From NCBI GenBank assembly GCA_039808985.1, contig JBDHUC010000001.1, positions 76,038-140,037 on the forward strand: DNA of 64,000 bases, in the 5' to 3' direction. Source of the stretch: Alphaproteobacteria bacterium (lineage in GTDB: Bacteria > Pseudomonadota > Alphaproteobacteria > Rickettsiales > SXRF01). Made by a program: the position numbers and the translations under genes. Below are positions 20,098 to 61,755 of this stretch, piece after piece (position 1 is the stretch's first letter; every line of letters starts with the position of its first letter). The notes beneath the pieces were generated by a model. That model saw only the letters and a list, made by a program, of their open reading frames with translations, had not been told where the DNA came from and did not search any database.

Positions 20098-20903
20098 TGA
20101 GCAGAGAAGAAGAGGAAGATTACGCTAATGCTGGCGGAATAACTAAATGGGTGCCTACCATAATGCTGGTGAGTGTAATCACAGGATTTCTTGTGCTGTC
20201 ATATTTCGCATATAATTCCGGAAGGCAATCAGTTAAGGAGGATGACCTGCTGGTGGTTGAAGCGGAAAAAACACCGATGAAGGAAAAGCCTACTGATCCT
20301 GGCGGAATGAAATTCCCCAACCAGGATAAAACCATCTTTGAAACATTCTCCAAGAAACAGGCGCCACCACAGGTTGAGCGCGTCCTGCCGCCACCTGAAG
20401 AACCTATAACCCGCACTGAAGCCATTGAAGCTATTGTCGGCAAAAATGCGGATAAAATGTCTGCTGCTGATAGTGACAGGAGAGAAACTATAATACAGGA
20501 AGACACTACCGGGCCAACAGATGTTAGTGTGGCTGAGGTAGTTGGTGTTGATGACAAAAAAGAAGAGAAAAAACCGGAAATAAAAGCGGAAGAAAAGCCT
20601 GCCCCTGTAAAAACTCCTGAGAAACCAGTGGAAAAACAGTCATCCGCCAAAGCAGCCAGTGGCGTTAAAGTCCAGCTTGGTGCGTATGGCTCAGAATCGG
20701 AAGCGCAGGATGTGTGGGGTAAATTGCAAAAGAAATATTCACAGCTTGCTGATAAATCCCCTCTTATAGTCCGGGCGGATCTGAAGGCCAAGGGAATTTT
20801 CTATCGCCTGCGTGTTGGTGGTTTTTCCAGTAAGGATGCCGCCAAGTCATTCTGCAAAACTTTATCAGATAAAGGCCAGGCCTGCATTTTGGCGGCTGAA
20901 TAA
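20097..20903 (+). CDS. SPOR-domain cell division protein (FtsN-like)
   Basis: TM, charged linker, C-terminal VQLGA...YRLRVG SPOR domain; argS-nagZ synteny. Confidence 0.88.
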   Translation: MSREEEEDYANAGGITKWVPTIMLVSVITGFLVLSYFAYNSGRQSVKEDDLLVVEAEKTPMKEKPTDPGGMKFPNQDKTIFETFSKKQAPPQVERVLPPPEEPITRTEAIEAIVGKNADKMSAADSDRRETIIQEDTTGPTDVSVAEVVGVDDKKEEKKPEIKAEEKPAPVKTPEKPVEKQSSAKAASGVKVQLGAYGSESEAQDVWGKLQKKYSQLADKSPLIVRADLKAKGIFYRLRVGGFSSKDAAKSFCKTLSDKGQACILAAE

Positions 20904-23902: not shown

Positions 23903-23931
23903 ACCAGGCCCCGCAGCAAGTGCGGGGTGGT
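23903..23931. repeat. REP-like hairpin ccccgcagcaagtgcgggg between tatC and serS
   Basis: GC hairpin related to the one at 27895. Confidence 0.55.
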
Positions 23932-23944
23932 AAAGGAGAAGAAT

Positions 23945-25228
23945 ATGCACGATATAAAATATATAAGAAACAATCCCCAGGAATTTGACGCAGGCCTTGC
24001 ACGCCGTGGCCTTGCTCCGCTTTCCGCTGAAATTTTAAGGCTGGATGAGGAAAAGAGGGCTGTGCAGACAGAATTGCAGGAACTGCTTTCCAAGCGTAAC
24101 AGCTTTGCTAAAAAAATAGGCGAAGCAAAACGCAGCGGTGCTGACACTACGCAGATAATGGAAGAATCCAGGCTGGTTAATGATAAAATAGCCGGGTTGG
24201 AAAGCGCGCTTTCAGGCCGGGGGAAATTAGAGGAGATGCTTGAAACCATCCCAAACCTTCCGGCTGCCGATGTGCCAGACGGCGCGGACGAGCATGGTAA
24301 CAAACAAGTACGGATAGTTGGCGAGAAGCCAAAAATGGATTTTGCTCCAAAGCTGCATGACGAACTTGGAGTTGCCTTGAAACTAATGGATTTTGACGCA
24401 GCAGCGAAATTATCAGGTGCAAGGTTCGTTGTTCTAAAAGGTGCGCTTGCAAAAATGGAGCGTGCCCTTGCCAGTTTTATGCTCGATATTCACACCAACG
24501 CCAATAATCCAAATTTAGGTGGTTATACGGAGCATGTGCCGCCGTTTCTGGTGCGTGATAACGCTGTTTATGGAACAGGGCAGCTACCTAAATTCTCTGA
24601 AGATCTGTTCAAAACAGAAAATGGCTTCTGGCTGATACCAACTGCTGAAGTTCCGCTTACCAATCTGGTAGCCGATTCAATTATTGACGCTGATAGCCTG
24701 CCTATACGCATGACCGCATACACTCCTTGTTTCCGTTCAGAAGCCGGGGCTGCTGGCAAGGATACTCGCGGAATGATACGCCAGCACCAGTTCTCTAAGG
24801 TGGAGCTGGTTAGCATTACCTCTGCCGATAAGTCTGAAGAAGAGCATGAGCGCATGACAGGTTGTGCCGAAGAAATATTAAAACGCCTCGGGCTGCATTA
24901 CCGGGTTATGCTGCTTTGCACAGGGGATATGGGGTTTGGTTCACAAAAAACCTATGACCTGGAAGTATGGATGCCTGGACAGAATGCTTTTCGTGAAATA
25001 TCAAGCTGTTCCAATTGCGGTGCATTCCAGGCACGCAGGATGAAAGCGCGCAGCAAGGCAAAAGGCGCTAAGGAAACCGAATTTGTGCATACGCTGAACG
25101 GCTCCGGGCTTGCTATTGGCCGCACTATGGTTGCAATCCTTGAAAATTACCAGCAGGCTGACGGAAGCATATTAGTTCCGGAAGCCCTCAGGCCTTATAT
25201 GGGTGGATTGAAAGTGATTAGTGGTTAG
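23945..25228 (+). CDS. serS: serine--tRNA ligase
   Basis: [31 protein letters not shown]. Confidence 0.97.
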
Positions 25229-25295
25229 TGGATGGCGAATAGTGGGGAAAGAAAACAAGACTATGCCTAAACACAAATCACTAACTACTAGCCGT
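25214..25295. repeat. 7-nt periodic inverted-repeat element at the serS/surE junction
   Basis: gtgatta-gtggtta-gtggatg-gcgaata-gtgggga ... taaacac-aaatcac-taactac-tagccgt. Confidence 0.7.
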
Positions 25296-35714: not shown

Positions 35715-35801
35715 TTAGCTACGGAATACCAGTTACTAGTTGCGAGTAAATATAATATAAACTAAAAAACTGGCAACTAGTAACTAGTAACCAGTAGCTA
35801 A
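35715..35801. repeat. 7-nt periodic inverted-repeat element between the SDR gene and ccmC
   Basis: tagctac-ggaatac-cagttac-tagttgc ... gcaacta-gtaacta-gtaacca-gtagcta. Confidence 0.8.
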
Positions 35802-49859: not shown

Positions 49860-50108
<249 letters not shown>

Positions 50109-50112
<4 letters not shown>

Positions 50113-50193
50113 TGATTAGATTATTAGATGACAAGGTGATTAAAAAGTACTAAATATCTTAGCTATCTAATCATCAAATAATCTAATCATCTA
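50109..50193. repeat. 8-nt periodic inverted-repeat element
   Basis: tagatgat-tagattat-tagatgac ... atcatcaa-ataatcta-atcatcta; 17-bp perfect terminal IR. Confidence 0.85.
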
Positions 50194-50245
50194 AAATCCG
50201 AGTCACCTTCTTAACCTCCAACTTCAAACTGTCAACTAGAAAATT

Positions 50246-53230: not shown

Positions 53231-53233
53231 TAT

Positions 53234-53295
53234 CAGATGACGGATGACAGACGGCAGATGACAAGCTGTCATCCGTAATCCGTTATCCGTCATCC
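53234..53295. repeat. 7-nt periodic inverted-repeat element between convergent genes
   Basis: cagatga-cggatga-cagacgg-cagatga ... tcatccg-taatccg-ttatccg-tcatcca. Confidence 0.85.
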
Positions 53296-54058: not shown

Positions 54059-54844
54059 ATGCCCAATATTAGCACCCCCACCTGCAAAACTGGCTTCACA
54101 CTAATAGAGCTAGCTATAGTCATGGTTATTATCGGCTTGGTTGTAGGCGGAATCATGATTGGTAAGGAGTTGATAAGGGCGGCAGAAATCCGTGCTTCAA
54201 TCAGCCAGGTCGAGCAGATAAAAACTGCCATAAACACATTCAAGGTTAAATATAATTGCCTTCCTGGCGATTGTACCTATGCAACAAATCTATTCGGCAC
54301 CGATTCAAACGGATGCCCCGCTGGCGGTGGCACCGGGACCTGCAATGGCGATGGCAATGAAAAGATTTCTGATATTAGCTACACCGACAACGGGCAGGAA
54401 GTTTACCGCCTGTGGCAACAGCTAGGTTCCGGTTACGCCGACCTTATACCAGGTAAATATACAGGAGTTTACACCAGTGCAGCTTTTAAATTCAGACCAA
54501 ACGCCGGTGTAAATGCGCCTATTAACAAACTTTTTCCTAATGGAGTTATGCGTTTATACAATCTCGATAATTATGCAGGAGGCAGCAATTTTTTTGCCGC
54601 AAATTATAAACATATACTGGAATTCTGGGGTAACAGCACCGTTATAACCCCATCAGTTACTCCATCAGAGGCACTTTCTATTGATACAAAATATGACGAT
54701 GGGATGCCTGGATATGGAAATATAATGAGTTACAGGAACACTATTCTCCCTAATTGCCTTACAACCAACTCTGTTATCACTGCAAAATATGACATCAGCT
54801 ACGCGGCCATAAATTGCAGCGTGTTTTTCAAGATGGGGTTTTAA
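54059..54844 (+). CDS. prepilin-type (pseudopilin) protein
   Basis: [11 protein letters not shown]-methylation motif, [14 protein letters not shown]. Confidence 0.88.
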
Positions 54845-56754
54845 GCCGGAACTTCTGCCTCAGCGAGCAGTAGTTTTTTAGCTTCGGCAAAGCTCATATT
54901 TTCCTGTTTTTCTGAGCCGAGCCTACGGATGGAAACGCTGGCGCTTTCCTGCTCTTTTGCGCCGACCACAAACATTACAGGTACTTTCTGCAAACTATGC
55001 TCACGCACTTTGTAATTTATTTTGTTGTTGGAAATATCAAGCTGGGCGCGGACTCCTGATTGTTTCAATTCATCGCAGAGTTTCTGGGCGTATTCGTCTG
55101 CTGCTTCGGTGATAGTTGCCACCACCACCTGCACAGGTGCAAGCCACAGCGGGAATTTGCCTGAATGCTCCTCAATCAAAATGCCGATGAAGCGTTCCAG
55201 CGAGCCGAGTATAGCGCGGTGCAGCATCACCGGGCGTTTTTTGCTTCCGTCCGGCGCTACATAATTAGCGTCAAGGCGTTCAGGCAGCACAAAATCCACT
55301 TGCAGGGTGCCGCATTGCCAATCGCGCCCGATGGCGTCACGCAGCACAAATTCCAGCTTAGGGCCATAAAACGCGCCCTCGCCAGAGTTCAACGTCCATT
55401 CCAGCCCGGCAGCGTTTACTGCTTCTTTCAGGGCGTTTTCGGCTTTGTCCCATGTTTCATCAGTTCCGGCGCGCTTGGCGGGGCGGTCGGAGAATTTCAC
55501 ATTTACCTGGGTGAAGCCAAAGGTTTTATATACGTCTTTAAGCAGGTCGCAGAAAGCAACTGTTTCTGAGGTGATCTGGTCTTCGGTGCAGAATATATGC
55601 GCGTCATCCTGCACAAAGCCACGAATACGCATTATCCCATGCAAACTGCCGGATGGTTCATTGCGGTGGCAAGTGCCGAATTCCGCCATACGCAGCGGCA
55701 GGTCACGGTAGCTCTTTAGTCCCTGACGGAAAATCTGCACATGGCAAGGGCAGTTCATCGGCTTTACCGCCATTGTGCGCTCTTCATCAGAGTTGCTTAC
55801 GAACATGTTTTCGTGGAATTTTTCCCAATGCCCGCTGGCTTCCCACAGGCTGCGGTCAACCAGTATCGGGGTTTTTACTTCGATATAGCCGTTTTTCCTG
55901 ATTTTAGTGCGGATATAATTTTCAATGATGCGGAAAATCGTCCAGCCTTTGTCATGCCAGAATACCATGCCCGGTGTGTGTTCTTCAATGTGGAAAAGTT
56001 CAAGCTCTTTACCGAGTTTGCGGTGGTCGCGCTTTTCCGCTTCTTCGAGCATGGTCAGGTAATTTTTCAGGTCTTTCTCGGAAGCCCAGGCTGTGCCGTA
56101 AACCCGCTGTAACATTTCATTGTTGGAATTGCCGCGCCAGTATGCGCCTGCTACTTTAAGCAGCTTGAAACCTGTGCCGATCTTGGCAGTGCTTTCCGCG
56201 TGAGGCCCACGGCAGAGGTCAATAAAATTGCCTTGTCTGTATAAGGATATTTTCTGTTCGGCAGGAATTGCGCCGATGATTTCTGCTTTGTAATCCTCAC
56301 CGATTGATTTGAAGAATTTTACTGCTTCATCCCTGTCCCATTCCTCACGGCGGATTGGCTCACCACGCGCCACAATCTCACGCATACGCTTTTCAATCGC
56401 CTCTAAATCATTGCTGGAAAACGGGGTAGGGCGGGAAAAATCATAATAAAAGCCGTTATCGATGGCAGGGCCAATGGTAACTTGCGTTTCCGGGAATAAT
56501 TCTTTTACTGCCTCTGCCAGTATATGCGCTGTATCATGACGGATAAGCTCCAGCCCATCTGCATCTTTGGCGGTGATTATCTGCACCTTGGCATCATGCT
56601 CAATCGGCAGGTAAATGTCTTTTAACTCACCATCCACCCGCACACATAAAGCAGCTTTGGCAAGCCCTGCGCCAATGGACGCGGCAAGCTCTTCACCGGT
56701 TACGGCATTTGCAAATTCTCGTTTTGAACCATCAGGAAGGGTGATTATGGGCAT
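54841..56754 (-). CDS. thrS: threonine--tRNA ligase
   Basis: TGS domain, [32 protein letters not shown]. Confidence 0.97.
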
Positions 56755-56757
56755 AGT
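56722..56757. repeat. 36-bp direct repeat copy A (thrS start)
   Basis: 35/36 identical to 59252..59287. Confidence 0.95.
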
Positions 56758-56762
56758 CTTTG

Positions 56763-56797
56763 GTTATTTGTGGTTAGTAATTAGTGGTTAGTTATAA
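56763..56797. repeat. single heptamer arm upstream of thrS
   Basis: gttattt-gtggtta-gtaatta-gtggtta-gttataa. Confidence 0.7.
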
Positions 56798-56815
56798 GGA
56801 AAATTTAGGCGGTGT

Positions 56816-59284
56816 CTAGTGTTCAGTATTATTTTTACCTTTGCAGGGATACCTTGAACTATCAATACAGCCAAACCAGAATGGCGTGGCTTTTGCCCAT
56901 GTTGTATAGCCATACCGTTTATGTAGTATTTTGTATGCTTTATGGGAATAATCAGCATGTGAACCATTGCTGGCACAACCATAACGGGTGGTCCTTATTG
57001 CATTGGATAAATCAGAAGCTATCTGGTTGTTGTCATTTTCCGAATTCCAGAATTTCCAACGCTCTATATTAGCACGTGCTATTATAGAGCGGCTTAGATA
57101 TTCCGGCCCGGATTTAAGTTCTTCAAGCTGCTCAAGTTCATTTTTGTTCATTACGCTACGATATGGATGCTGTTCCATGAGCACCTTTTGCTTTTCAATA
57201 TATGGCTCGATTTCCTTGTGAATATCAACACCATCTATTAAAGTTTTTCTTAGCCCCCAGCTTATATCCGGCGGCCTTATGCGCGCCGCTTCAAAAATAC
57301 CGTCCTCAATGTTTTTTTCATCCACCTTACACCACCAGTTATTATCATTGTGGTTATAGGTGTCTATTTTTGACATATCTTCAACAACGCCGTTACCGGA
57401 ATTATTAGTCACCACATATTCCAGATATGGATTTGGCCGGAATCTTGGCGAGCGCACTAAAAACTCGATAAATTTATACCTGTCGTTGCTGGCCGCAGCC
57501 GTCAGCAATTCCTGCCGTACCGGTGGGTTAAGTTTAGCAGCAAGCTTTGCGTACGTATCAAATTTATCTTTATCAAATCCAAGCAGAAAAGCACGGGTTA
57601 CAGCAGCCCTTGCAAATAAAGGTCGTTCCAGTGGCAAAGTTTCTTCGCTATTTGCCAGATTATAAAGCTCTTGCGTGGAAACTGCATCAACCATCTTCTT
57701 CCATAATTCCGGAGAATTTGTATTTTCCCAAGAATTAGGGTTATGATTTCGGTTTATTTTTACCACTTCATCCCAACTTGTTGCAAGCAATGTCCTCCAA
57801 TGCTGGAATTTATCTGGATAGATTTTTAGTATTGCCGCAAGTTGCGCCCTTGCTTCATCCACCTTGCCAGTATACACGAGCCAGCGCAGGGATTTTTGCA
57901 GTATGGCTATACCCATATCATTCCTGCTTGAATATGGAGAGTCCATTTCCAATTCCAAGCCGCTGTAATCAACATGCTGTTCAACAAGATTCAAAGCTTC
58001 CTTATATTCCTCCCGCCCTAGGTGGATTCGTATTGCCTGCTCCCACATATCGAGCAGCCAATAACGGTATTCCTGTGTTTCGTTTTTCCAGGCACGGTTG
58101 AAATATGGCTCTGATTCTTTCAATATATTGCCTGCTAGTTCATCTTCAGGATGCGCGCGGCGGGCTGCAATTTGCAGCCACTCAAGCCCATCTCCATTTT
58201 TCCAGCGCTGCCATGCGTGGGTAACTATGTTACGATTTTGCTCCCAATAAGGGTTGCTTGCAATATGCAGAGCAAATAGCCAGTCAGTATCGAAAATATT
58301 ATAAGCCCACTTTGCCTGCATCCAGTCCACCAGTTCATTCTTTGGTGCAAGCGCTTCTACAGCTTTCATCCTGCCTGAAGAAACAGGAATATCTCTCAGC
58401 CACCAGTCCACTGTTTTTGATTCGCCGTCATAAACCGGGAAATAAGTATTTAATTGCTCCATCGCATCCGAATAATCATTAAAGCTCTGCTTAAGATTTA
58501 CCGCCTTTTCTGGTGTTACTTTTATAGTTTTCAGCAACCAGTTTAAATGCTTTTCTGGATCAGGAGCGCCATACCAGCCCATGATGAATTTATAGTTAGC
58601 GGTAATATCATGGACGGATTTCAGGCTATCATCAGCGAGTACAACATCTATAAGGTTATAAGCCTCAGCTTCACCGCCTAGTTTAACCATCGTCCTAAGT
58701 GACATATATGCTGCCATGGGACGTATAGGCGCATCATACATATGCACAATTTTTTTATATATCTGCATGGCATCTATAAAATCACCGCGATAAAAATGCT
58801 GGGAGGCTTTCTGGTACAGAAAATCGCTTTCAGCACGCTTAGGCAATTCGCCTTTTGGTTCCACTAAATCAACAGGATTATTCTGGCGGAAATCGCACGC
58901 AGAAAAAACCCTATCCTGGTTTTCAGCCCATATTTTCTGGTATGGGGTTTCCTTGCCTAATTCAGCTCGTATCTGCTCAAGGACTTTAATAGCACTGTCA
59001 TATTGGCAATTTCCTATACTCCAGTTTGCTGATGGCGGAGCTACGGCTTTAATATCCATCCCAATAAGCAGTTTATTCCATATTTTTACCTTTTGCTGGC
59101 CAGAATCATAATCGTAACTATCCCTGCGCTGGTAAAACAAACCTGGTTTATCAGAAAAAAATTCTTCCGTAATTAACGATGGTCTTTTGCTTTCTTCAGC
59201 AAAAACAATATTTGGCAAAAGAAGGATTATAAGCAATAGGATAGAATGCCATTTTAAACCATCAGGAAGGGTGATTATGGGCAT
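56816..59284 (-). CDS. large secreted helical (TPR-like) hypothetical protein starting with the ThrS N-terminus
   Basis: 822 aa; MPIITLPDG then signal peptide; C-terminal TRYGC...LHKRY...WAKATPFW. Confidence 0.8.
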   Translation of the reverse strand: MPIITLPDGLKWHSILLLIILLLPNIVFAEESKRPSLITEEFFSDKPGLFYQRRDSYDYDSGQQKVKIWNKLLIGMDIKAVAPPSANWSIGNCQYDSAIKVLEQIRAELGKETPYQKIWAENQDRVFSACDFRQNNPVDLVEPKGELPKRAESDFLYQKASQHFYRGDFIDAMQIYKKIVHMYDAPIRPMAAYMSLRTMVKLGGEAEAYNLIDVVLADDSLKSVHDITANYKFIMGWYGAPDPEKHLNWLLKTIKVTPEKAVNLKQSFNDYSDAMEQLNTYFPVYDGESKTVDWWLRDIPVSSGRMKAVEALAPKNELVDWMQAKWAYNIFDTDWLFALHIASNPYWEQNRNIVTHAWQRWKNGDGLEWLQIAARRAHPEDELAGNILKESEPYFNRAWKNETQEYRYWLLDMWEQAIRIHLGREEYKEALNLVEQHVDYSGLELEMDSPYSSRNDMGIAILQKSLRWLVYTGKVDEARAQLAAILKIYPDKFQHWRTLLATSWDEVVKINRNHNPNSWENTNSPELWKKMVDAVSTQELYNLANSEETLPLERPLFARAAVTRAFLLGFDKDKFDTYAKLAAKLNPPVRQELLTAAASNDRYKFIEFLVRSPRFRPNPYLEYVVTNNSGNGVVEDMSKIDTYNHNDNNWWCKVDEKNIEDGIFEAARIRPPDISWGLRKTLIDGVDIHKEIEPYIEKQKVLMEQHPYRSVMNKNELEQLEELKSGPEYLSRSIIARANIERWKFWNSENDNNQIASDLSNAIRTTRYGCASNGSHADYSHKAYKILHKRYGYTTWAKATPFWFGCIDSSRYPCKGKNNTEH

Positions 59285-59287
59285 AGT
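59252..59287. repeat. 36-bp direct repeat copy B
   Basis: duplicate of the first 11 thrS codons plus 3 upstream nt. Confidence 0.95.
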
Positions 59288-59288
59288 T

Positions 59289-59398
59289 GTATTTTGTGGA
59301 TGGTGAATTGTTATTGGTGATTAGTGAGCCGTTATTTATAATGAAAATTACTGATATGTCCACTACTCACTATCCACTAATCGCTAACCACAAGTTAC
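59289..59398. repeat. 7-nt periodic inverted-repeat element
   Basis: seven GT-starting heptamers, then tgtccac-tactcac-tatccac-taatcgc-taaccac-aagttac. Confidence 0.8.
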
Positions 59399-59402
59399 TG
59401 AT

Positions 59403-61178
59403 TCAATACCCACGTTCCTCTGGCGGGAAGGACAGGGTCTTTTCAGAATTTTCAAGGCGTACGGGTCGGGTAGAGTGCTGGGTTTTTCCATTTTCATCAA
59501 GCAGAACCAGGCTATGCGCCAGCCAGTTTTCGTCATCCCGCCTGGGGAAATCTGCACGAAAATGCGCGCCGCGGCTTTCCGTGCGGTTTAATGCTGAGGT
59601 CAGTGTAACCAGCGCAAGGCGCAGGAGATTATCGGTTTCCATGGCATCAAGCAGGTCATTATTCCAGACCAGGGATTTGTCAGTTACCTTCATATCGAAA
59701 GCCGCTAAATCCCATAACTTTGCAAGCTTATCAACGCCTTCTTTTAAAATATCATTTGTGCGGAAAATACTACCATGATGCTGCATTATTTTTTGCAATT
59801 CCCTGCGTATTTTATTGGGTGCTGTGCTACCTGCTGCCTGCCTGAATTTTTCAAAACGGGCGAGGGGAGCAGCAAGCATGGAATTGCTAATTATTTTATG
59901 TGAAGTCTGGCGGTTTATTGTTTCAGCAGCCAGCTCTCCTGCTGCCTTGCCAAACACCACCAGCTCCAGCAAGGCATTGCAGCCAAGCCGGTTTGCCCCA
60001 TGAACTGAGGCGCAGGCTGCCTCGCCAATAGCCAGCAGGCCACCCACAATATTTTCGCCGATTACCACCTGGCTTTTTGAATTTGTTGGTATTCCGCCCA
60101 TTGTATAATGCACAGCAGGAAGTATTGGAATTGACTGCTTATGTATATCAATCCTTGCGAAAGTACGGGTAATTTCCTTTATGGAAGGCAATTTGCTGTC
60201 GATAAGCTTCTCTGGCAAATGCTCTAGCCGCAGGTGCAGATGGTCTTTTTTCTCGCCACAACCGCGTCCTTCTAATATTTCCTGCGCCATTGCACGTGAT
60301 ACTACATCACGTGAAGCAAGCTCCATTGAACCTGGAGCGTAACGCTGCATAAAGCGCTCGCCTGTTGCGTTGGTAAGATATGCGCCCTCGCCGCGGGCAC
60401 CCTCGGTTATAAGCACCCCGGTATCATAAAGGCTGGTTGGATGGAACTGGATGAACTCCATATCCTGAAGCGCAATACCGGCGCGAAGTGCCATAGCGTT
60501 TCCATCACCTGTGCATATGGTAGAAGCAGTTGTCGCAGCGTAAACCTGCCCAAACCCACCAGTAGCAAGGATCGTTACATGCGCCTGGAATATATGCAAA
60601 TCCCCGGTTTCCATTTGCCATGCAATTACGCCAAGGCAGTTTCCCTGTTCATCGAAAACCAGATCCAGCGCTGTATATTCGATAAAAAATTCAACATTAT
60701 GGCGCAAAGCCTGGGCATAAAGCGTATGCAGCAGGGAATGCCCGGTACGGTCAGCCACAGCGCAGGCACGGTAAGCTAACCCTCCTTTACCAAAATCTGT
60801 TTTCTGCCCTCCGTAAGCACGCTGATAAATCTGTCCTGATTCATCACGGGTGAAGGGCATACCCATATGCTCAAGCTCAACAATCGCTTCGGGCGCACGC
60901 TCACACATCAGCGCAATCGCATCCTGATCACCAAGCCAGTCAGAGCCGCGGATAGTATCATACATGTGCCATTGCCAGCTATCCTCGCTGCGGTTGCCAA
61001 GCGCAGCGTTTATTCCGCCCTGGGCCGCGACAGTATGGCTGCGGGTAGGCGGCACTTTGGAAACGCAGGCAACCGATAAGCCGCTTTCGCTGGCCGCAAC
61101 TGCTGCGCGAAGCCCGGCTCCCCCAGCCCCAAGAACCAGAACATCATGGGTATGATATATAAAATTATATTGTTCCAT
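59403..61178 (-). CDS. sdhA: succinate dehydrogenase flavoprotein subunit
   Basis: [40 protein letters not shown]; start moved to MEQYN. Confidence 0.9.
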
Positions 61179-61290
61179 ATTCCGATGATACGATGTTTTT
61201 ACTTGGGATGACAATAAAAGTTATGCTTGTAGAAAATAATGAGTTATGTAAATTGTTACAGTTAATAAACCAATACCTAGGAGAAGTAAT

Positions 61291-61755
61291 ATGGCTGGCA
61301 GCGTTAATAAAGTTATACTGGTTGGTAATCTGGGCCGCGACCCTGAAATACGTACTACCCAGGATGGGCGCGAGATAGCAAATCTCGCTATCGCAACATC
61401 TGAAAGCTGGAAAGATAAAAATACCGGGGAGCGTAAGGAAAAGACTGAATGGCACCGCGTTGCCATATTCAATGATGGACTGGTAAGCGTGGTAAAGAAT
61501 TACCTGAAAAAAGGCGCGAAAGTATATATTGAAGGCCAACTCCAGACCCGTAAATGGACAGATAAAGATAACCAGGAAAAATATTCCACCGAAGTTGTGC
61601 TACAGGGTTTTAACAGCACATTGCATATGCTGGATGGCAAAGGCGGCAGTAGCGAAAGCGCTGGCGGCGGGAATTACAACCAGTCTTATTCACAACCATC
61701 AACGCAAGGCCAGAAAGCTCCGGCTGAGCTTATGGATGACGAAATCCCGTTTTAG
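61291..61755 (+). CDS. ssb: single-stranded DNA-binding protein
   Basis: [24 protein letters not shown] tail. Confidence 0.97.

Follow-up and report, generated by a model that had tools for sequence, protein, structure and literature searches.

How can a gene come to begin with the first codons of its neighbor and leave that neighbor complete? This question is raised by a locus in the metagenome-derived assembly GCA_039808985.1 (62 contigs) of an alphaproteobacterium (Rickettsiales; SXRF01), of which we analyzed one stretch of 64,000 nucleotides (contig JBDHUC010000001.1, positions 76,038 to 140,037), hereafter referred to as the window; all coordinates without another designation are those of the window. 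An open reading frame (ORF) of 822 codons, here called X, starts in it with a copy of the first 11 codons of thrS, the gene of threonyl-tRNA synthetase (ThrRS). An earlier reading, made before any database search (the sequence-only reading), had proposed that a cargo gene was put into the 5' end of thrS, kept thrS intact and borrowed its start codon, and our results support this proposal with amendments. We consider it probable, with moderate confidence, that recombination produced the locus, fusing a foreign gene in frame to thrS at codon 11 and duplicating 36 nt of the thrS start.

The duplicated start of thrS

The repeat comprises 3 nt upstream of thrS and codons 1-11, and its two copies lie 2530 nt apart and are identical at 35 of 36 positions (56722-56757 and 59252-59287), as the sequence-only reading had described. 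An exact core of 31 nt is present just twice in the 2.05-Mb genome, a count that is unchanged with 3 mismatches permitted; by our own arithmetic, the expectation for a chance exact repeat of this length in 2 Mb is about 1e-6. The claim that X opens with thrS codons and runs in frame into a signal peptide is likewise borne out by the translation, in which a hydrophobic stretch ending VFA/EE follows. Pairs of ORFs with a common start, for which a wider scan had been suggested, are essentially unique to thrS/X in this genome: among 28,605 candidate ORF starts, only 4 pairs at 3 loci have 27 nt in common and then diverge, and the two loci other than thrS/X were judged from their sequences and ORF lengths (114-373 aa) to be candidate ORFs that open in the same short repeat.

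On the coding strand, the order of elements is sdhA, an inverted leader-like stretch, P_U, L_U, S, X codons 12-822, P_D, L_D, S and thrS, where P denotes a promoter-like site, L a leader, S the 36-nt start, and U and D the upstream and downstream copies (Table 1). ThrRS has its complete domain set in an intact ORF, with the TGS domain, the second additional domain, the class II core and the anticodon-binding domain all above the Pfam cut-offs, and it is 83-92% identical in amino acid sequence to the ThrRS of congeners over residues 1-636. The idea of an inserted cargo holds for the X gene itself, whereas the insert is not cargo alone; its last ~65 nt appear to be a second, different promoter and leader of the thrS type, which would have re-supplied thrS with expression signals.

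Table 1. Features of the sdhA-X-thrS region in the window.
Feature	Coordinates	Strand	Description or evidence
thrS, intact, 637 aa	54841-56754	minus	Pfam TGS, tRNA_SAD, tRNA-synt_2b, HGTP_anticodon
S_D, downstream copy of the thrS start	56722-56757	minus	Continuous with the thrS body
L_D, leader with heptamer repeats, 36 nt	56755-56790	minus	One G in last 18 nt; predicted unstructured
P_D, downstream promoter-like site (TAGACA, 16 nt, TATAAC)	56791-56818	minus	First three bases are the X stop codon
Sequence between the repeat copies, 2494 nt	56758-59251	minus	X codon 12 to stop, downstream promoter and leader (putative)
X, 822-aa ORF	56816-59284	minus	Translation; Pfam TPR_14/TPR_19 above cut-offs
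S_U, upstream copy of the thrS start (-3 to +33)	59252-59287	minus	Source of the ATG and residues 1-11 of X
L_U, C/A-rich leader, 50 nt	59285-59334	minus	No Shine-Dalgarno-like motif; no G in last 19 nt
P_U, upstream promoter-like site (TGGACA, 16 nt, TATAAA)	59335-59362	minus	Putative; motif read and conservation in the genus
G/T-rich heptamer stretch just past the sdhA stop, inverted copy of the thrS-side leader	59369-59398	minus	30 nt, 83% complementary to 56763-56792
sdhA (succinate dehydrogenase flavoprotein), upstream neighbor	59403-61214	minus	Pfam FAD_binding_2 (E 4.7e-114), Succ_DH_flav_C (E 6.7e-42)

On the other side of thrS, a 261-aa ORF with a prepilin N-terminal methylation motif (54059-54844, plus strand) overlaps the thrS stop by 4 nt and lies between thrS and infC, which are therefore not adjacent here.

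The protein encoded by X

X consists of residues 1-11 from thrS, residues 12-29 that form the rest of the signal peptide, and, from residue ~30 onward, a mature all-helical protein resembling tetratricopeptide repeat (TPR) proteins. A search of a collection of 5.8 billion proteins listed 68 matches including X's own cluster, of which the best non-self match is 54% identical and the top homologues reach E-values of 5.6e-288 and weaker at 94-98% coverage. An AlphaFold (AF2) model built from 43 sequences is all-alpha (predicted local distance difference test 85.2, predicted template modeling score 0.83), and Foldseek returned for it generic TPR solenoids only, with template modeling (TM) scores of at most 0.21. 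No named family was found for X, as matches in NCBIfam lie far below the cut-offs and the ESM Atlas clusters are unnamed.

The start of X sets it apart from its family. None of the 67 non-self homologues, at least 5 of which are N-terminally incomplete, begins with MPIITLPDG; instead, complete homologues have an ordinary signal peptide, i.e., Met, in most cases with Lys or Arg next to it, then a hydrophobic core and a site of the Ala-X-Ala kind, followed by a conserved RPSLITE motif, which in X is located at residues 34-40. In the alignment, X residues 10-12 face the Met-Lys/Arg start of the homologues; the 11 codons from ThrRS therefore stand in place of only about one or two that X has lost. 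Apart from the N-terminus, where the first 11 residues of X are those of ThrRS and not a start of its own, the homology is full-length and includes RPSLITE and the C-terminal region: the family shows 38 invariant columns in 43 sequences and a conserved RTTRYGC...ATPYWF region, and the C-terminus of X is complete, with a tail of 8 residues past the last conserved Cys (family range 2-11). N-regions of 16-35 residues before the hydrophobic core are present in several homologues (e.g., P0008, P0029 and P0055).

Homologues of X were located at 23 loci, which are patchily distributed over Alphaproteobacteria, Gammaproteobacteria, Campylobacterota and Syntrophia-type metagenome-assembled genomes. At none of the 23 loci does thrS lie within 3 kb; the lone match is a 27%-identical class II core in locus L023, which probably belongs to another synthetase gene. 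Homologues that natively carry the thrS-like N-terminus without linkage to thrS, the finding that the sequence-only reading had named as contrary to it, were thus not seen among these sequences and loci. X was detected neither in the genomes of 40 relatives, among which are all 8 other species of the genus, nor in 72,556 plasmid records, and it has no second copy in its own genome. Its GC content of 42.0% places it at the 8th percentile of 813 long ORFs, compared with 45.6% for the genome and 50% for thrS and sdhA. X has therefore been acquired horizontally; it belongs to a family of exported proteins of ~800 aa that resemble TPR proteins, and it is missing its own start only (~1-2 codons).

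Two variations on the family architecture were also observed. Among proteins P0007, P0011, P0012, P0019 and P0027 and loci L023 and L029, an extra N-terminal LprI-like domain (PF07007) occurs in some members, and some reach lengths of up to 1354 aa.

Support from independent samples

The metagenome-derived nature of the assembly, its 62 contigs and the breaking of 31-mer contigs at the repeat are what might be expected of an artefact, a chimeric join over a short repeat; we regard such an artefact as extremely improbable. The stretch is present in sequencing runs of 12 studies, mostly of activated sludge, and Logan contigs were compared for 4 runs. In runs X1 and X3, the 31-mer contigs end at the repeat on all four sides, and in X1 the 31-nt repeat forms a contig of its own at a depth of 9, about twice the 3.5-5.2 in its flanks; this pattern is the expectation for a true two-copy 31-nt repeat. 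A 430-nt contig of run X5, from another study, extends from within X across the upstream copy and the leader into sdhA (59139-59568). The reading frame of X is open through the junction, and the join sits where the homologues start. Independent contigs thus back both types of junction, and the check on misassembly that had been proposed came out in favor of the sequence-only reading.

The runs also revealed variation in the locus. In run X5, an A>G difference at position 59256 turns codon 10 of X into TCA (Ser) as in thrS, so that both copies are identical at 36 of 36 positions, which makes the Leu of the window a change of later date. The sequence of X in run X3 has 7 single-base differences in 6 codons and no insertion or deletion, with three silent codons (E348, S220 and S97) and three amino acid changes (S391L, Q134H, and V138L through a double change within its codon). 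An excised or empty form would give contigs that join the two sides of the insert directly; none was present in the 4 runs compared. No RNA run is listed among the runs with the stretch; run X20, labeled 'RNA?', is probably DNA and has two contigs only.

Two promoter and leader modules

A site of the form T[AG]GACA-N16-TATAA[AC] lies upstream of the thrS start in 6 of 8 congeners (8 of 10 sequences compared) and is missing in G002 and G004. On the basis of this conservation, P_U and P_D may both act as promoters. AACACTAGACA precedes thrS in congener G003 too, where X is absent; the stop codon of X (TAG of TAGACA) is therefore borrowed from thrS-locus DNA, like its start.

The two modules differ strongly outside the 36-nt start. 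Promoter and leader are 0.60 identical between U and D, compared with a background of 0.53-0.67 for distant congeners, 0.75 and 0.76 between D and G001 and G005, respectively, and 0.91 between G001 and G005, whose thrS genes are 94% identical. The 36-nt start shows 0-1 difference between U and D and 1-9 differences over six congeners in the same register, G006 being not comparable without gaps owing to a 9-nt insertion. The thrS start thus appears as a conserved island amid diverged flanks, and its small number of differences among congeners would make it a natural anchor for recombination. By these comparisons, neither thrS 5' module is a recent copy of the other, and P_D-L_D is of the type found before thrS in G001, G005 and G003.

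Neither spacer gave signs of a structured RNA element. The fold of the sdhA-to-X spacer is no better than that of shuffled sequences (z -0.05), no structure is predicted for the X-to-thrS spacer (z +0.86), the fold energy of the 112-nt region 56719-56830 being -2.7 kcal/mol, and Rfam returned no match in 54500-61500 at E <= 1. By a crude count, Shine-Dalgarno-like motifs are present in 30% of 1055 long ORFs of the genome.

An uninterrupted thrS allele

A metagenome scan with a 26-nt pattern over thrS codons 7-15 yielded a single contig, L040, of which 3 kb were compared. It carries the thrS allele of the window uninterrupted, directly behind a leader of the type found before X. Its thrS is 93.65% identical to that of the window over 1544 nt, with 7 differences in 514 residues and no mismatch in the first 92 nt; thrS of the congener genomes is 74-84% identical, the nearest being G003, G001 and G005 (0.82-0.84). 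The last 27 nt before the ATG of L040 match L_U at 26 of 27 positions, and the 60-nt alignment from -27 to +33 is 96.7% identical, whereas L_D reaches only background similarity to the same leader (0.55-0.59). The end of L_U (27 nt), S and the thrS body hence constitute one allele, which in the window is split after +33 by 2494 nt.

The match of L040 to the upstream flank of the window ends at about -27/-30, and L040 belongs to another species. It has as neighbors a divergent glutathione S-transferase (GST) gene and genes of the divK/pleD kind, whose identity is no more than 70-75% with G003 and 73% with the genome studied here (G000), so that L040 represents an ordinary congener; it seems to share the thrS allele of the window through between-species exchange. 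A sliding comparison of the two thrS genes gave 97-99% identity in the first ~450 nt and 87-91% beyond 1000 nt. Consistently, a mosaic test of thrS found no donor-type patch beside the start, the 5' end being the part most like L040, and the homologous joint is therefore to be placed within or right at the 36 nt. In its own right, the match between 54841-56781 of the window and 1456-3026 of L040 looks like a recent exchange of thrS between species.

These data bear on whether the second start might have arisen in place, by an old tandem duplication of promoter, leader and start (about 75-115 nt) at the insertion of X, after which the upstream parts would have diverged, with the 36 nt kept alike by gene conversion or by selection on translation initiation. 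Both copies do have the same architecture, with two well-matching blocks near the -10 site (17/19 and 11/13), and the thrS start is unusually conserved at synonymous sites (1-4 differences per 36 nt in the nearer species vs ~80% identity over the first 150 nt). However, U and D (0.60) are more diverged from each other than D is from G001 and G005 (0.75-0.76), yet X is missing in all 8 congeners, and the near-identity of the L_U end to L040 has no counterpart in L_D. By our own rough estimate, 4-9 differences between the copies of S would be expected at this divergence, compared with the 0-1 observed. We therefore consider an in-place duplication improbable and keep to recombination with foreign DNA as the preferred explanation.

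The region upstream of thrS in congeners

In G008 and G002, sdhA directly adjoins thrS without an insert (spacers of 69 and 92 nt, respectively), i.e., the empty sdhA-thrS allele anticipated by the sequence-only reading exists in relatives. In G001, a BrnT/BrnA toxin-antitoxin pair with its own promoter-like site is located between sdhA and the thrS promoter (L009, 5136-5688), at a position corresponding to the place of X, and the sister species G005 has yet another gene there. Other upstream neighbors of thrS are present in G003, G004, G005, G006 and G007. The upstream region of thrS thus appears to be a hotspot of insertion and rearrangement in the genus. In G006, ThrRS opens with MPNKPIVITLPDG, owing to a 9-nt in-frame insertion right behind codon 2 (L016, ~1482-1530), which may be a minor trace of a further event at the start of thrS.

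That the stretch ahead of the thrS promoter is a proven spot for insertions, with BrnT/BrnA in G001 and unrelated neighbors in five other congeners, also bears on the direction of events. In the reverse direction, P_D-L_D-S-thrS would be resident, and a ready-made P_U-L_U-S-X cassette from a lineage with an L040-like allele would have landed just upstream of the resident promoter. By its promoter, module D does group with the congeners whose thrS is nearest. In addition, GTAAC(T/C)TGTGGTT is located before the G001 promoter and before P_U (12/13 identical), and A(A/C)CAC just ahead of the -35-like hexamer is common to D, G001, G005 and G003, so that the outer flanks of the segment from P_U to X are contiguous in G001. 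Against this stands the thrS body, which is itself L040-like from +1 onward, being free of mismatches over 92 nt and 97-99% identical up to ~450 nt; two L040-like pieces would have to arrive independently, one before X and the other behind L_D. The fusion event would moreover just be shifted to another, unseen genome. Because of the separate arrival of two pieces, we rank the reverse direction below insertion into the L040-like allele and regard it as possible although unlikely, and the same holds for its corollary that nothing was duplicated in this genome.

The sequence-only reading had further noted heptamer arms behind both copies of the start. Arrays are indeed present at both, with a period of 7 at 56770-56792 and of 14 at 59359-59391 in Tandem Repeats Finder (TRF), but they are not the termini of an element: the same type of leader precedes thrS in X-free congeners, and heptamer arms as mobile-element ends were rejected. 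A regular-expression search detected 7 GTGRTTA-like arrays in the genome vs 14 in a reversed control. We interpret the arms as C/A-rich heptamer-repeat leaders that seem typical of thrS in the genus, together with one inverted copy after sdhA.

Similar repeats were observed elsewhere in the window. A G/T-rich heptamer array (GTGATTA, GTGGTTA, GTGGATG and so on) at 25213-25240 begins at the stop codon of a 433-aa ORF (23927-25228), which by sequence inspection was taken for serS, and resembles the stretch behind sdhA. Further period-7 arrays are located at 35775-35800 and 25213-25231, and a tandem-heptamer hairpin (53231-53294; 28-nt arms, 79% complementary, 3-nt loop) separates infC from a 514-aa ORF to which no Pfam family could be assigned. 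The window also contains an 85-nt tandem repeat at 49918-50112 (2.3 copies, 98% matches), flanked by period-8 arrays at 50109-50194. Across the genome, 606 intervals of at least 24 nt, mostly 25-125 nt, recur exactly; these dispersed, partly palindromic short repeats occur on many contigs (e.g., C1:16504-16705, 20596-20816 and 103773-103946) and are unrelated to the thrS repeat.

Search for features of mobile elements

X, thrS, sdhA and the 8 neighboring ORFs scanned (51.7-64 kb) yielded no match to an integrase or transposase domain, and the corresponding statement of the sequence-only reading holds for these ORFs. A second copy of the thrS start is present only in G000, among 18 matching of 44 family genomes searched, and likewise only there among 10 matching of 401 class-level genomes searched. 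Terminal inverted repeats specific to the insert were not found; the sole inverted pair (56763-56792 and 59369-59398) is situated beyond the insert at one end but within it at the other, and its sequence is that of the thrS leader. A transposon or insertion sequence is not indicated, given the lack of a transposase and a duplication of 36 nt. Target duplications of transposons are usually far shorter. As for an integrase-borne island, X contains TPR families only, and the same site is unoccupied in the other genomes searched.

The direct repeats are nevertheless precise, the cargo is trimmed nearly exactly to the ORF at both ends, and the 36 nt are conserved across the genus, features that would suit a site-specific cassette, in which the thrS start serves as attachment site and X with its promoter is mobilized by a recombinase encoded elsewhere. 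Besides the lack of an integrase in the ORFs scanned and of insert-specific terminal inverted repeats, no second occupied site was found in 43 other family or 400 other class genomes, and X is without a match in the plasmid records mentioned above. Insertions in the congeners, moreover, lie upstream of the promoter, not in the start, and have no second copy of the start. On balance, a cassette of this kind is very unlikely.

A model for the origin of the locus

Most likely, the locus arose when DNA of diverged lineages recombined with the conserved start of thrS as the anchor; this would have been integration of the Campbell type or homology-facilitated integration, and not the work of a transposon or an integrase-borne element. 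The donor would have been DNA of a congener with a thrS promoter of the G001/G005 type and with X immediately upstream of that promoter. This DNA would have recombined with thrS of the present lineage, with the conserved S as the homologous anchor. The second joint, from thrS +33 to X codon 12, would be illegitimate and probably formed at an AAA microhomology, suggested by Lys11 of ThrRS and by the Lys/Arg that commonly follows Met in signal peptides of the family. A single crossover of a circularized fragment (Campbell type) would give exactly this topology, as would a template switch during repair.

After such an event, X might be transcribed from the original thrS promoter of the lineage and translated from the ATG behind the original thrS leader, which is poor in G and has no Shine-Dalgarno motif. 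The ThrRS residues, 11 in number, would merely lengthen the n-region of the signal peptide, and cleavage at VFA/EE would remove them and leave a scar-free mature protein, which may be why the fusion is tolerated. Transcription of thrS would proceed from the imported P_D and probably also by read-through from X, since no terminator is predicted between X and thrS.

Several points weigh against this model. Its direction is not settled, as P_D-L_D falls in the promoter class of the species with the nearest thrS (G003, G001 and G005) and could have been vertically inherited. No donor genome with X beside thrS was found, and nothing in the protein collection exceeds 54% identity to X. L040, a different species, could itself be a deletion product between two copies of S. 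A length of 36 nt is short for RecA-type recombination, and the AAA microhomology was deduced from the way in which homologues begin (Met-Lys/Arg). On either side, X ends no more than a few codons away from its ORF ends, which random breakpoints would explain only via selection or later trimming. A consensus scan for promoters and terminators listed nothing on the minus strand in 56600-59500, including P_U and P_D; the scan demands T at the last -10 position and excludes TATAAA and TATAAC.

The near-exact trimming of X could be accommodated if the moving unit consisted of the cargo ORF body plus a spare thrS promoter and leader, as a recombinase-free, self-compensating cassette with the 36-nt start as a portable anchor in the genus, a version that we consider improbable. 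Such a unit would leave by recombination between the start copies and enter the thrS of another species, where the cargo would gain the resident promoter, leader and start codon and thrS would receive a replacement promoter. The trimming, the heterologous promoters and the sharing of thrS alleles between species would then be facets of one process.

Under the preferred model of recombination at the conserved start, the locus would be a clean natural example of how a horizontally acquired gene solves the problem of expression, by in-frame fusion to the promoter, leader and start codon of an essential gene. Such a fusion would be tolerable because the borrowed residues fall in a signal peptide that would be cleaved and because a replacement promoter for the essential gene arrived in the same event. 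Our results also point to the thrS 5' region of this activated-sludge alphaproteobacterial genus as a focus of between-species recombination, since a thrS allele is common to two species, the upstream neighbors are variable and a toxin-antitoxin insertion is present in a congener.

Comparison with known processes

A full-text literature search returned no description of an insertion at the start of thrS, nor of bacterial genes that had captured a start in this way, which is not proof of absence. Prophages and genomic islands are known to integrate within protein-coding genes and to supply a replacement gene end, e.g., the lambdoid elements in icd; such elements depend on an integrase with an att core and bring many genes, and the end that they replace is usually the 3' end. 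The present locus resembles them in that integration took place in an essential, conserved gene and a duplicated segment keeps this gene intact. It differs from them in that no recombinase was found in the ORFs scanned, the 5' end is concerned, and the resident start was passed to the cargo.

The likeness to Campbell-type insertion-duplication is closer. According to a study of conjugation in Escherichia coli, a single crossover of a circularized molecule duplicates the homologous segment, and such events outnumber true homology-facilitated illegitimate recombination (HFIR) (PMC3240628). Here, too, the insert lies between direct repeats of a homologous segment (36 nt), and because this segment contains the 5' end of a gene, one copy is fused to incoming DNA and the other belongs to the complete gene. 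The homologous segments in that study are 109-950 bp long (PMC3240628), compared with 36 nt here, where the event is a natural one, and in the present case the incoming DNA would be a foreign ORF body together with the thrS promoter and leader of another species. With HFIR the locus would have in common one homologous anchor and one illegitimate joint of a few bases (here the presumed AAA), which place foreign DNA beside a conserved gene. HFIR, as characterized in the study, deletes about as much recipient DNA as is inserted and uses 3-10 bp of microhomology (PMC3240628); recipient DNA is duplicated here and nothing is lost, which speaks against this variant of our model.

The closest known process is thus Campbell-type insertion-duplication, with HFIR second. 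The recombination scar at thrS is real and well resolved, and it is unusual in its double borrowing, of a start and a stop codon, and in the heterologous spare promoter that accompanies it.

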